From IMG/VR virus record IMGVR_UViG_3300027822_000011: a DNA stretch of 64,000 nt; one strand, written 5' to 3'. The stretch comes from a virus. Positions 4,361-29,035 of the stretch are shown here, one piece after another (the first letter of the stretch is position 1; each line of letters opens with the position of its first letter). Under the pieces are notes generated by a model. That model had not been told where the DNA came from. It ran no database searches and was given only the letters and a program-made list of their open reading frames with translations. Position numbers and translations under genes: made by a program.

Positions 4361-4713
4361 ATTTTATTTGTAACCCCTTTAATAATCCGTGTGATAACTT
4401 CATCTTCAATTCTATGAGTTACCAAATCTTTTCTAATTTGATCACAGAATATTTTTTCAGTCAAAGTAGGTTCACTCTTTGATTCCCTTTTCCAAGCGTG
4501 TGCAGCCTGATTTACAGCCTTTTCAATCATTTCTGATAAAGAGGGCTGCTCCCTTAAATACTCATTAATTATTTCAAGTAAAATAGCAGTTCGTGGCCGG
4601 CTGTTTTCAAGTGATAACATAGCAAGTCGATGAGCATCATTTTTGATAATATGCACCCCAACCAGTTTTTTATCAACCAAATTTTTATCTGTTTTAGACA
4701 TAAAGATACTCAT
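4357..4713 (-). CDS. Hypothetical protein
   Basis: 118-aa ORF, ATGA-coupled to the recombinase. Confidence 0.55.
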   Translation of the reverse strand: MSIFMSKTDKNLVDKKLVGVHIIKNDAHRLAMLSLENSRPRTAILLEIINEYLREQPSLSEMIEKAVNQAAHAWKRESKSEPTLTEKIFCDQIRKDLVTHRIEDEVITRIIKGVTNKI

Positions 4714-25830: not shown

Positions 25831-26526
25831 TCAATAAAATTTATTTATCTTAATTTCAACCTTTCTATAGGTTTTTAACAAATGAATTGGCCTGCCGTGC
25901 ACCATATCCATAAGTCGTGACATTATCCTTGAATATTCTTTTTTCCTGGTAATCTGTTCTATATCATAATTTGTAGTAACTATCGTTTTTCTATTTTCCT
26001 GGTATCTGGTGTCAATTATTTGATCTAAAATTTCTAAAGTAAAATCTGTATTCTTTTCAATTCCAAGGTCATCAAGTATCAACCATTTACAATGAGAAAC
26101 CTTTTTAACCAAAGAATCAAATTGCCATAAACCATTATCTGGATCCCGATCGTTGTTTTTTATCAATCGGCGTAATTCAATAAAAAGATCAGCTACTCTA
26201 AAAAATCTTGTATTATGATCAAGGTAAAACCAAGATTTTTTTTTTGATAATAAAACCAAAGCACATGCATAAAAAGTTTTACCAGTACCTGGCTTTCCAT
26301 AAAAAAATGCAGACTGATTAATTAATTTTTTTAATTTGTGATAATTATCAATTTCAAAATTTGGATAAAATGCAATTAACTCCCTTGCAATTTTTAATGG
26401 AAATCGTTTGATTATATATTTTTTAAATCTTTCATGTGAACTTAAATCTTCATCATCTTGAATAACCAGTTCAGGTTTATACCCTGGATCAGCATCAAAT
26501 ACGTTTTCTATCTCCATTTTAATCAT
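25831..26526 (-). CDS. DnaC/IstB-like ATPase (helicase loader)
   Basis: YGKPGTGKT, LILDDLGIE, IDTRY..RKTIVTTN, RIMSRL. Confidence 0.85.
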   Translation of the reverse strand: MIKMEIENVFDADPGYKPELVIQDDEDLSSHERFKKYIIKRFPLKIARELIAFYPNFEIDNYHKLKKLINQSAFFYGKPGTGKTFYACALVLLSKKKSWFYLDHNTRFFRVADLFIELRRLIKNNDRDPDNGLWQFDSLVKKVSHCKWLILDDLGIEKNTDFTLEILDQIIDTRYQENRKTIVTTNYDIEQITRKKEYSRIMSRLMDMVHGRPIHLLKTYRKVEIKINKFY

Positions 26527-27571
26527 CCTTACTAAAAGTAAAATCGTTATTTATAATTCCTTGCCGGCTTTCAATCGTTGAATTATTATTATTTAGTCTA
26601 TTTTCTTTTTCCATAGCAGCTTCAACTTTAAAAAATTTATTTCTAAACGATTTTCCAGATTGTAAAATATGTGAATAATCATTTCCTATTGTTTCAGCAT
26701 GATAATTTAAAACAGCTTTTATTCTTTCTTTTATTTTTCTTGGAACTCTGCCGGGTTTAATTTTTAAATCCTGTTGAACTAATAATCGAATTTGATTAAA
26801 CCATTCATTGAAACCTTTGAATTTCATTTTTGGATATTCTTCAGAATTTATTTTCTTTAGTAGTTTTGCAAGGTGAATAAAATATTTATTATCTGGATTC
26901 TCAGGATCATTCAAATTATATTTTGTAATTTGATTTCTTGAAATTCTAAAAATATTCAAATAAAATTTATTTTCAGAATCATAAAAGCTTGAGGGTGGAT
27001 ACCCGAAAGAATGAGATTTAGATTTAAAATTATTAATTTTCCTTAAAGCATTTTTATTTAATACTTTAGTATTCCTATAAGCATTTATATAAGGCGTCCA
27101 CCGGGTGGCTTTTTTGCCCGGGTGGAAACTGGCTTGCAAATCCCCACTCTCCCCATTTTTGCCCGGGTGGGTTTCCATTAATATTTTTTGCTTGTTATGC
27201 TCTTCAAAAACTTTTCTGTTTTGCTCTTTACTCACATAACGCAAATGAATATACCACCCTTTTACCCGATTTGTTTTACTATCAAAAATAGAAACGTCCT
27301 CAATCAATCCAATTTCAAGTAATTTCTTTTTGGCAGCCCTTATTTTTTTATAGTTCATATGCAGCCCCTTGGCAGCAAAAGCAGTCGTTGCTTTTATCTG
27401 ATCAGTCTTTTGCATTTGGGAGCACATATTGTAAAACAAATATAAAAGAATAGCAGTATCTCCACTTGGAGTCCCTACCAATTTTTTATAATGATGAACT
27501 GAAATATAAGTAATTTTAAGCCATTCATCAGCCACATATCCATGAAAATCTTTATCACTTACCCTTTTCAT
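26519..27571 (-). CDS. Putative replication initiator (lambda O-like position)
   Basis: N-terminal wHTH-like region; directly upstream of the DnaC-like gene; internal iteron-like repeats. Confidence 0.55.
   Translation of the reverse strand: MKRVSDKDFHGYVADEWLKITYISVHHYKKLVGTPSGDTAILLYLFYNMCSQMQKTDQIKATTAFAAKGLHMNYKKIRAAKKKLLEIGLIEDVSIFDSKTNRVKGWYIHLRYVSKEQNRKVFEEHNKQKILMETHPGKNGESGDLQASFHPGKKATRWTPYINAYRNTKVLNKNALRKINNFKSKSHSFGYPPSSFYDSENKFYLNIFRISRNQITKYNLNDPENPDNKYFIHLAKLLKKINSEEYPKMKFKGFNEWFNQIRLLVQQDLKIKPGRVPRKIKERIKAVLNYHAETIGNDYSHILQSGKSFRNKFFKVEAAMEKENRLNNNNSTIESRQGIINNDFTFSKDD
27101..27170. repeat. Iteron-like direct repeats
   Basis: TTTTTGCCCGGGTGG at 27111-27125 and 27156-27170, plus CCGGGTGG at 27101-27108. 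Confidence 0.7.
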
Positions 27572-27581
27572 ATCAACTCTC

Positions 27582-27911
27582 CTACTTCAATAAATGATGA
27601 TAAAAGGCTTTTTGAAATTTATCAGTGATAGAATATGAATAATGCCCTCTGGCTATTACAATTGAAAACCATTCATGATGGCAAAGATATCCTATTACTT
27701 TTTTGATATCATCAATAGTTATATCCATAGTAAAAGATAAATATTCAATAGATGGGACTGATTTGTAAACACTAAAAAATAAATGAATATGAACCAAAAA
27801 CTTTTTAATATATTCGTTTTCTTGGGTTTCATAATGATCAGAAAGGGAATGAGGACTAAACTCAAAAATAGATTTTTTCCCAATAGGTTTCTTGAACTTA
27901 CAATTATTCAT
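27582..27911 (-). CDS. Hypothetical protein, possible wHTH
   Basis: 109-aa ORF with AAGGAG RBS. Confidence 0.55.
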   Translation of the reverse strand: MNNCKFKKPIGKKSIFEFSPHSLSDHYETQENEYIKKFLVHIHLFFSVYKSVPSIEYLSFTMDITIDDIKKVIGYLCHHEWFSIVIARGHYSYSITDKFQKAFYHHLLK

Positions 27912-28030
27912 TGAACTTTCTCCTTGTTTAAGCTTTCTGCCTGGGAGCGTTACAAGGAGATTTCATCAACCGAATGGACAAAACCAACACTCCCGTTTCC
28001 TTGCCGGGCCAATGGCAGGGTGGCAGAATA
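27912..28030 (-). promoter_or_regulatory. Structured 5' leader with a predicted RBS-sequestering pseudoknot
   Basis: GGGAGUGUU/AACGCUCCC and UCUCCUUGU/ACAAGGAGA stems in A-B-A'-B' order; UUCUGCC/GGCAGAA long-range pairing. Confidence 0.6.
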
Positions 28031-28037
28031 AAATTTG

Positions 28038-28066
28038 ATTATATTAATTAAATATCAAAAAATCAA
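28038..28066 (-). promoter_or_regulatory. Sigma70-type promoter
   Basis: TTGATT-N17-TATAAT. Confidence 0.75.
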
Positions 28067-28099
28067 GTAATATCATATTATTTTTATAACTTCTTAAAA

Positions 28100-29035
28100 T
28101 CATTGAAAATTAAATACCTTGTTTAAAATAATTTGAATTTGTTTAACCTTCATATCTCCTGGGTCAATCCCCAGATTATGTTTTACTATTTCGGCATCTT
28201 TACCAGCAAAAATAAGTTGTTTCATTAATTTTTTAGCTGATTTTATACCAGCATTATCAGGGTCAAAAAGAATATAAACCGTTTCATATTTTTTCAATAA
28301 TAAAAATTGTTCTGCCGTATAATCAACCCCAAAACAACAAGTAGCTGGATAGCCTGCTAAAACCACTTTCCAGACATCAAAAATACCTTCACAAAGAATT
28401 ATAAAAGGAAAGTTAGCTGGATCCGGGGCATTATATAATATTGTTTTGTGTTCAATTTTTTCTATCTTGGCAGGACATGTTATATATTTCAAAGAACTAT
28501 AATTGGTATGATCTCTGGATTGCCATGATACCACTTCATTATCAAATAAAATAGGGGCTATAATTCTATATGATAAATCTATTTCATCTAAAAAACCTGC
28601 GCATCCAGTAGCAAATAAATGGAATTTCTTAGCAATCCAGATTGAGTCTTGCCTTGAGAATCCCCTTTTATTCATAAGATATGCCATTGCCACTGGCCGC
28701 TTAAGTATTGGCTTTATATCATCAGGCATTTTAAATTTAAAACGAACAACTTTGATCTTATGTTCTTTTATTTTGGTATTTCCATTATACTGTTTTATAA
28801 GCTTGTTTGCATCTTTGAATGGAATGCCAAGTAATTGCATTAAAACTTTTTGGGTAGATTTAAATCCACACCGCCAGCATTTAAAATAATTTTTACTTAA
28901 ATTATACCCCAAATGATTACCAGAATGACCTGAACAAAAAGGACATGGAATATTATACCAACCTGATCTATAATGCTTTTCACCTTCATGGGCATATCTA
29001 ATTGAATAGTCTTGAAATAATCGGTTGATATCCAC
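28100..29035 (-). CDS. DNA primase (zinc finger + TOPRIM)
   Basis: CPFC...CWRC, WQSRD, LCEGIFD, FDPD..G. Confidence 0.85.
   Translation of the reverse strand: MDINRLFQDYSIRYAHEGEKHYRSGWYNIPCPFCSGHSGNHLGYNLSKNYFKCWRCGFKSTQKVLMQLLGIPFKDANKLIKQYNGNTKIKEHKIKVVRFKFKMPDDIKPILKRPVAMAYLMNKRGFSRQDSIWIAKKFHLFATGCAGFLDEIDLSYRIIAPILFDNEVVSWQSRDHTNYSSLKYITCPAKIEKIEHKTILYNAPDPANFPFIILCEGIFDVWKVVLAGYPATCCFGVDYTAEQFLLLKKYETVYILFDPDNAGIKSAKKLMKQLIFAGKDAEIVKHNLGIDPGDMKVKQIQIILNKVFNFQ

Follow-up and report, generated by a model that had tools for sequence, protein, structure and literature searches.

Genomic context and promoter

The 64,000-nt stretch of viral DNA analyzed here (IMG/VR record IMGVR_UViG_3300027822_000011; hereafter the window) carries a set of replication genes on its minus strand, and the leader upstream of a putative initiator operon within this set is a real, conserved folded RNA at the start of the replication-initiation mRNA. 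A gene for a DnaG-type primase (Toprim; PHROG 47) lies upstream of this leader. The first cistron behind it, ORF109 (27582..27911; minus strand, as are all features below unless marked otherwise), encodes a small winged-helix protein, as judged by AlphaFold/Foldseek comparisons. It is followed by the gene for a 350-amino-acid (aa) replication initiator candidate (26519..27571), which starts 10 nt past the ORF109 stop codon, and by a gene for a DnaC-like helicase loader (25831..26526; Pfam IstB_IS21, PHROG 50). A DnaB-like helicase is encoded among the genes downstream of the leader. The leader was read on the minus strand, and positions 27700-28400 were inspected.

A profile search with ORF109 detected eight representatives in 1.84 billion proteins. 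The AlphaFold model of this protein has a pLDDT of 80, and its best Foldseek matches were to winged helices of MarR, MntR, ArsR and the DnaD N terminus, although these were weak (E about 0.04). No Pfam or PHROG match of its own was obtained for the 350-aa protein, the model of which is confident only in an N-terminal winged-helix-like domain. The N terminus aligns with that of the initiator of a distant relative, L001 (hhalign probability, 96.6%; E = 6e-10), a protein that matches the PHROG families 'replication initiation O-like' and 'DnaD-like'. A first-pass annotation of the window had labeled these genes an initiator/DnaC operon, a reasonable label given the homology between the N-terminal domains of the 350-aa protein and of an O-like/DnaD-like initiator and given that the DnaC-like loader is encoded next to it.

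A sigma70-like promoter is located at 28038..28066 and consists of a −35 element (TTGATT, 28066-28061), a 17-nt spacer and a −10 element (TATAAT, 28043-28038). It matches the consensus at 10 of 12 positions, is the top promoter-like site of the region and is predicted to start transcription near 28031. Equivalent promoters, also with 10 of 12 matches, are present in five relatives linked to the window by ORF109; in the window and in these five, the promoter ends 7 to 14 nt ahead of the first helix of the fold described below. For L001, a promoter-like TTGACA-17-TAAACT site was identified by eye. The G+C content of the element is 51% versus roughly 30% in its neighborhood. Both the near-consensus promoter and the GC-rich leader had been noted in the first-pass annotation and were located where it had placed them. 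Neither an intrinsic terminator nor an attenuator was found in the leader, and ARAGORN detected no tRNA or transfer-messenger RNA in the window.

Fold of the window copy

In the minimum-energy nested fold, the window leader is closed by a helix, P1, which pairs 28022..28028 with 27935..27941. Within the three-way junction enclosed by P1 lies a hairpin, P2 (27999..28020), with a stem of 28020-28014/28005-27999 and a loop (28013-28006) that contains GGCC, part of a GGCCCGG stretch at 28004-28010. The other branch is a long hairpin, P3, comprising a lower helix, P3a (27986..27994 with 27943..27951; 9 bp, one of them G-U), and an upper helix with its loop, P3b (27959..27985; 27985-27977/27967-27959, loop 27976-27968). 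A 7-nt bulge in the 3′ side of this hairpin is an anti-Shine-Dalgarno sequence.

The bulge strand (27952..27960) can pair with 27919..27927, which spans −16 to −8 relative to the ORF109 start codon and is the Shine-Dalgarno region of this gene, through nine perfect Watson-Crick pairs (27960-27952/27927-27919). The core consists of the seven pairs at 27958-27952; the remaining two, at 27960-27959, use nucleotides that can also pair at the base of P3b. With P3a as stem A and this pairing as stem B, the strands occur in the order A-B-A′-B′ (27994-27986, 27960-27952, 27951-27943 and 27927-27919), with 0 nt between B and A′. This is the S1-S2-S1′-S2′ topology of an H-type pseudoknot, in which P3b and its loop form loop 1 and the 3′ strand of P1 sits within loop 3. 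The joint between S2 and S1′ measures 0 to 1 nt in all seven lineages now known to carry the leader, and the knot helix probably stacks on P3a.

Both stems, their order, the zero-nucleotide joint and the identity of B′ with the Shine-Dalgarno sequence of the open reading frame (ORF) starting at 27911 had been proposed in the first-pass annotation, and all were found as described. The annotation was also right about the H-type topology, but the fold is larger than it had envisaged, since loop 1 is itself a conserved helix and there is an additional hairpin with a GGCC loop. A pairing of the 5′ end of the leader, which the annotation had suggested might act as a competing switch, is in fact P1, a conserved and covarying closing helix. 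P1 and the pseudoknot have no nucleotides in common; the linkers of 5 to 15 nt suffice for both only if P1 folds back along P3.

Several statistics were calculated for the window copy by itself. For 5 of the 153 ORFs of this A+T-rich window, a 9-nt stretch complementary to the start region is present in the 130 nt before it; by duplex energy, the knot pairing ranks third among the same 153 ORFs. In comparison with shuffles of its own downstream region, the pairing had a p value of 0.006. On its own, the window copy, with an unremarkable folding z-score of −1.2, stands out only moderately from chance, and it is because of the comparison with relatives, rather than of this copy alone, that the element was accepted as real.

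Relatives of the leader

Relatives were traced through ORF109, the initiator and the primase, and a clade linked by ORF109 was assembled from Logan, ENA, JGI and NCBI metagenome assemblies. Together with the window, the lineages L024, L025, L124, L126, L127 and L001 bring the number with this leader to seven. The leader of L023 is identical to that of the window, and those of L026 to L028 and L030 are identical to that of L025; L125 has the same ORF109 protein as L124 and a leader match that scores equally. Every member of the ORF109 clade has the gene order primase, leader, ORF109-like gene, initiator and DnaC-like gene, and the synteny of P0009 matches that of the clade. The seventh leader, that of L001, is on an IMG/VR contig with a primase 46% identical and was turned up by running a covariance model on ∼95 loci of remoter primase relatives; no other copy was found at these loci. 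L001 lacks ORF109, and its leader stands directly ahead of the O-like initiator gene. A 222-aa ORF without a PHROG match (L001:4003-4671) is inserted between the primase gene and the leader of this contig.

Other searches revealed no closely related sequenced phage. No nucleotide match to the 1.2-kb region was obtained in 50,697 phage records, and the nearest primase match was to Vibrio siphophages at 25% identity. IMG/VR contained no relatives of ORF109 and the initiator and no additional relative of the L001 initiator, and no primase of the ORF109 clade was found in GTDB representative genomes. A 16-mer from the junction, used as a DNA probe, gave 20 viral matches, all due to chance. A gapped pattern of the bulge plus the Shine-Dalgarno sequence gave 7 viral and 73 genome matches, approximately the number expected by chance, none of which was confirmed by the covariance model. 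One apparent ORF109 relative, P0011 (731 aa), was discarded as the spurious translation of a tandem repeat with a 153-bp unit. This repeat (L128:2404-4529) is present at 13.9 copies in a 535-kb ENA contig, and its 731-aa translation matches the ORF109 profile spuriously in 13 stretches.

Conservation and covariation of the fold

The seven leaders, folded separately, share one architecture, with folding z-scores of −1.2 (the window), −2.7, −2.4, −2.1, −4.9, −3.0 and −3.8. In all seven, a 3′ bulge of 7 to 9 nt separates the upper helix, P3b, from P3a, the G+C-rich helix below it. The whole element spans 75 to 110 nt, and P3 is a helix of 12 to 19 bp with an asymmetric bulge. P1 is clear in the window, L025, L124, L127, L126 and L001 and is reduced to a 3-bp remnant in L024. 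P2 is inside the three-way junction in the window, L025, L124 and L127, lies just 5′ of P1 in L001 and is missing from L024 and L126. The strands of the junction are short and vary in length and sequence.

The alignment produced by MAFFT was wrong in the 3′ halves of the leaders; hand-set coordinates and model-based alignments were used instead. In the hand alignment, all 38 cells of P1 pair across six lineages, and all 8 columns have changed on both sides; P1 was also supported by the covariance-model alignment. P3a is paired in 55 of 55 cells, with changes on both sides in 8 of 12 columns, and P3b in 36 of 37 cells, with such changes in 7 of 9 columns. Over the whole hand alignment, standard pairs occupy 153 of 156 cells, and 26 of 36 columns have changed on both sides. 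An alignment of five lineages made by the model yielded 98.3% paired cells, as opposed to 77% for shuffles and 41 to 55% when the partner strands were slid. Changes on both sides were detected in 19 of the 31 pairs of this alignment (8 of 9 in helix 3) versus 7.8 ± 1.9 for shuffles and 2 to 5 for slid partners, and none of 500 shuffles reached the observed value. Covariation in related phages was the check that the first-pass annotation had proposed, and the stems proved to be kept or compensated.

Recognition of one leader by a model of another provided a separate line of evidence. A covariance model that had only the window leader as input, run with filters off, returned the leader as the top match in four of the five ORF109-linked relatives; the leader of L126 was the second match, essentially level with a spurious match in L024. 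The E values were 3e-4, 2e-3, 0.012, 0.023 and 0.24, and four of the five matches start at the hand-set P1. A second covariance model recovered L001, which had not been used in building it, at an E value of 2.

The helices contain 18 G-U cells and a single A-C cell. The complementary strand, or duplex DNA extruded as a cruciform, would carry 18 mismatches in place of these G-U pairs. This bias, together with the conserved sense promoter, indicates that the folding molecule is the sense-strand RNA, the leader of an mRNA. No antisense promoter conserved in position was found among the relatives examined; one weak antisense promoter-like site (9 of 12 matches; plus strand, 27877-27904) is present in the window and is not kept in the relatives.

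No conserved leader peptide was detected, as no upstream ORF is kept in position or sequence across the seven leaders. A 12-codon ORF in the window (27928-27966; ATG at 27966, stop codon at 27930-27928) spans P3b, the bulge, P3a and P1; it has no Shine-Dalgarno sequence, and the relatives do not keep it.

The pseudoknot pairing across lineages

All seven lineages have the 7- to 9-nt bulge at the same place, and in each it is complementary to a stretch downstream of P1. Five different sequence versions of bulge and partner, with 6 to 9 bp, were observed. L126 has the same bulge as the window, again paired with the Shine-Dalgarno sequence (−13 to −5 from the start codon), and L024 has the same bulge with a partner that differs at two positions, both forming G-U pairs (−15 to −7). 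A different 7-nt pairing occurs in L025 (−20 to −14, just before the Shine-Dalgarno sequence), another of 6 nt in L127 (−20 to −15), one of 8 nt in L001 that ends where the Shine-Dalgarno sequence begins (−19 to −12) and one of 7 nt in L124 (−58 to −52). The partner is thus the Shine-Dalgarno sequence itself in three lineages and remote in one; in the other three it lies no more than 20 nt upstream of the start codon. In six of the seven it falls between −20 and −5. Comparison with shuffles of the downstream regions gave p values of 0.006 for the window, 0.042 for L025, 0.004 for L124, 0.15 for L127 and 0.005 for L001, which combine to 7.6e-6 by Fisher's method over these five independent versions.

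The existing gene call (L025:4591-5004, and likewise in L026 to L028 and L030) starts at an ATG inside the P3 hairpin and adds ∼21 residues too many. From the alignment of ORF109 proteins, the true start appears to be a TTG at 4654, with a good Shine-Dalgarno sequence ahead of it.

L124 has an extra hairpin between the knot partner and the start codon (L124:2450-2500), seen in this lineage only; in its stem, a purine-rich 5′ arm pairs with a 3′ arm that is an anti-Shine-Dalgarno sequence. This hairpin resembles an expression platform with three parts.

The GGCC motif

GGCC is found without change in all seven leaders, in most of them as part of GGCCCGG. It occupies the P2 loop in five lineages; in L024 and L126, which have no P2, it belongs to the 3′ strand of the long helix, at its base. 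GGCCCGG occurs three times in the 64-kb window, and the other two copies are inside coding regions. No partner in cis for the GGCC loop was detected near the initiator start or elsewhere in the ORF109 mRNA, and the GGCC hairpin is the best candidate for a point of contact or recognition by another factor.

The motif resembles the GCCCGGG core of repeats within the initiator gene of the window. G+C-rich direct repeats were observed at a similar place in the initiator genes of several phages (window, 27061-27180; L024:1451-1506; L025:5444-5680; L126:2525-2605; L127:3361-3390, the last being a run of a 6-nt unit). The repeats differ between phages, a pattern expected of iterons coevolving with their initiator, while GGCC is constant. 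Autoregulation of an iteron type was rejected on these grounds, as the leader motif does not vary with the repeats.

The hexamer YGGCCS is present 66 times in the window versus 39 ± 6 expected, and none of 100 dinucleotide-preserving shuffles reached this count. Most copies are TGGCCC or TGGCCG. The excess may reflect a codon-pair effect or a genome-wide motif.

A probable translational operator and the alternatives to it

The leader is probably a translational operator that acts through the knot, a reading to which we assign a probability of roughly 0.6. The RNA would begin a few nucleotides before P1 and fold into a compact domain of P1, the P2 hairpin with its GGCC loop and the long P3 hairpin. 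The 3′ bulge of P3 could then pair with the ribosome-binding region and stack on P3a, completing the pseudoknot. The footprint of a 30S subunit extends from roughly −20 to the start codon; formation of the knot would keep the subunit off the Shine-Dalgarno region and hold down the synthesis of ORF109. Initiator synthesis would probably be lowered too: the stop codon of ORF109 lies 10 nt before the initiator gene, the translation of which may follow that of ORF109. From its position, then, the leader most likely throttles the amount of initiator protein. Repression is argued for, rather than activation, because the knot buries the Shine-Dalgarno sequence in three lineages. A trans-acting factor, more likely a protein than a metabolite, might stabilize or open the fold; within the operator reading, such a factor is about as likely as a constitutive set point.

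A number of observations weigh against the operator reading or against the strength of the evidence for it. The partner in L124 is 52 to 58 nt before the start codon, and the Shine-Dalgarno sequence of this lineage is free in the predicted fold, so direct occlusion is not universal. The knot of L127 has 6 bp and a p value of 0.15, and the folding z-score of the window leader (−1.2) is weak for a single sequence. Neither the initiator nor ORF109, which is absent from L001, is an obvious partner for GGCC. The effect on translation is deduced from position, and the seven lineages known are a small sample. Finally, the counts of pairs are inflated because the structure guided both the manual and the model-based alignments; this concern is reduced by the independent folding of single sequences and by the cross-recognition obtained with the one-sequence model.

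An orphan riboswitch, with the junction and knot serving as an aptamer for a nucleotide-pool metabolite or a 7-deazaguanine precursor that sets initiator translation, is unlikely, even though the leader has some of the general features. A multistem junction plus a pseudoknot is a signature used for flagging ligand-binding RNAs (PMC5737381), and the leader combines the two. The additional anti-Shine-Dalgarno hairpin of L124, the one lineage of the seven to have it, resembles an expression platform, and in L025 genes for a 6-pyruvoyltetrahydropterin synthase-type protein (PTPS) and a radical-SAM protein come just after the replication module. Among the seven sequences, however, the junction strands are short and unconserved in both sequence and length, and GGCC is the only invariant unpaired motif. 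P2 is absent from L024 and L126 and is outside P1 in L001. The regulated genes are not metabolic, and Rfam 15 gave no match, the preQ1 classes included (E ≤ 10 for the window and E ≤ 1 for the relatives). The poorly conserved junction strands and the loss of P2 in some lineages disfavor a small-molecule pocket and favor a structural gate read by a protein or RNA.

The element could alternatively act as a stabilizer, with the helix at its extreme 5′ end shielding the replication mRNA from 5′-end-dependent decay, or as a processing signal, with the long, irregular P3 hairpin as a site of the RNase III type, rather than as a gate for translation. Stem-loops at the 5′ terminus stabilize bacterial mRNAs, T7 early mRNAs and the lambda N leader carry processing sites of this type, and the T7 sites are hairpins with asymmetric internal loops. 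In line with such a role, the first helix (P1 or P3) of the window leader and of the five ORF109-linked relatives begins 7 to 14 nt past the −10 box, within a few nucleotides of the predicted 5′ end, and P3 is a helix of 12 to 19 bp broken by an asymmetric bulge. This length, however, is mostly under the roughly two helical turns preferred by RNase III, and stabilization gives no reason for the covariation of the bulge with sequence in or adjoining the ribosome-binding site. Stabilization and translational control can also coexist. As a replacement for the operator, we consider this explanation improbable.

The inverted repeat of P2 around GGCC might instead act as DNA, either as an operator bound by ORF109 or the initiator through a winged helix or within an origin, with the remainder of the element incidental. 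In favor of this are the winged-helix folds of ORF109 and of the N-terminal domain of the initiator, the position of this 6- to 8-bp repeat just past the promoter and the iteron-like repeat with a GCCCGGG core inside the initiator gene. Such a role is very unlikely to account for the leader, as the excess of G-U over A-C cells (18 versus 1) points to selection on one RNA strand and as covariation of P1, P3 and the knot has no rationale at the DNA level; moreover, P2 is absent from L024 and L126, ORF109 is absent from L001, and the iterons vary among phages while GGCC does not. Equally remote is a role as the target of an antisense RNA that makes kissing contacts with the conserved hairpin loops, in the style of plasmid copy number control as practiced by IncI-alpha and IncB plasmids with leader pseudoknots and antisense RNAs for the initiator, or in kissing between leaders through GGCC, which is self-complementary and exposed in a loop in five lineages: the one weak antisense promoter-like site of the window (27877-27904) has no positionally conserved counterpart among the relatives, a mirror-image RNA would have about 18 A-C mismatches, and GGCC is base paired rather than looped in L024 and L126.

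Comparison with known systems

No plausible family was detected over the core of the element when positions 27500-28500 of the window were compared with the 4227 covariance models of Rfam 15 at E ≤ 10, and a search of five relatives in their entirety at E ≤ 1 gave no match in any leader. A full-text search of the literature found no description of the leader. The element is a new RNA family, present in seven lineages of uncultured phages and outside Rfam.

The first-pass annotation had compared the topology with that of Shine-Dalgarno-pairing riboswitches, with preQ1 in mind, and with that of the T4 gene 32 operator; neither kinship was borne out, as Rfam gave nothing at E ≤ 10 and the defining traits examined for each were not found. 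With preQ1-II, preQ1-III, SAM-II, SAM-V, SAM/SAH and NAD+-II, the leader shares a knot strand that is, or abuts, the Shine-Dalgarno sequence and a fold that controls ribosome access. It differs from these riboswitches in having no covariance match (E ≤ 10) and no conserved, pocket-like junction and in that one of its hairpins is dispensable. The aptamer folds of preQ1-II and preQ1-III (RF01054 and RF02680) gave no match at E ≤ 10, and the genes downstream are for a winged-helix protein, an O-like initiator and a DnaC-like loader, with no que or transport genes.

Regulation of initiator translation by pairing of an upstream hairpin with a stretch beside the ribosome-binding site is established for repY-repZ (repB-repA) of IncI-alpha, IncB and IncL/M plasmids. 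In these plasmid leaders the knot is an activator of translation; it is formed with the apical loop of the hairpin, depends on the translation of a short leader peptide and is prevented by an antisense RNA. The likeness to the plasmid systems lies in the long-range pairing of a hairpin with a site near the ribosome-binding site of a replication initiator; in the phage leader, however, it is a bulge that pairs, and there is neither a conserved leader ORF nor a conserved antisense promoter.

The operators bound by S15 (rpsO) and S4 (alpha operon) set the level of a nucleic acid-binding protein at translation initiation. Like these Escherichia coli elements, the phage leader is a 5′ leader with a pseudoknot at the translation-initiation region (the rpsO knot is treated in PMC7038950). 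It has no sequence or Rfam relation to them, and it differs in that the upstream strand of the knot is the bulge of a hairpin in a junction and in that the genes concerned are phage replication genes.

The operator of gene 32 in T4 and RB69 acts on translation and has its leader pseudoknot near the 5′ end (PMC535899). In T4, a knot of ∼28 nt is followed by more than 40 nt of an unstructured tract of UUAAA/UAAA repeats that holds the ribosome-binding site, and the operator is bound cooperatively by the single-stranded DNA-binding protein (SSB) (PMC535899). Both cases involve the mRNA of a phage replication protein with a folded pseudoknot near its 5′ end. In the leader described here, by contrast, a domain of 75 to 110 nt is joined to the start region by a linker of 5 to 15 nt that lacks a repeat array, the Shine-Dalgarno sequence is part of the knot or directly adjoins it, and the first cistron encodes a winged-helix protein and the second an O-like initiator, not an SSB. 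In its presumed functioning, the element is like the rpsO and alpha-operon operators and the Shine-Dalgarno-pairing riboswitches and is a member of none of these groups.

Implications

A more far-reaching possibility, which we regard as doubtful, is that the leader represents a new riboswitch class or a sensor of dosage, mediated by GGCC through RNA-RNA contacts, that ties initiator synthesis to a cellular or phage signal. If this were so, the signal could be the supply of nucleotides or of 7-deazaguanine precursors for DNA modification, or else the number of leader transcripts.

The way in which phages adjust the amount of their replication initiators has been worked out in detail for only a few model systems, phages and plasmids. 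The leader adds an RNA device, supported by covariation, that precedes the initiator operon in a clade of uncultured phages from marine and other environments. The analysis also gives the unannotated 350-aa protein a first functional link, that to O-like initiators, and corrects the start of ORF109 in L025. With natural members whose bulge pairs with the Shine-Dalgarno sequence, beside it or far from it, the family would be a convenient system in which to study the gating of ribosome entry by a pseudoknot, and is possibly an orphan switch.

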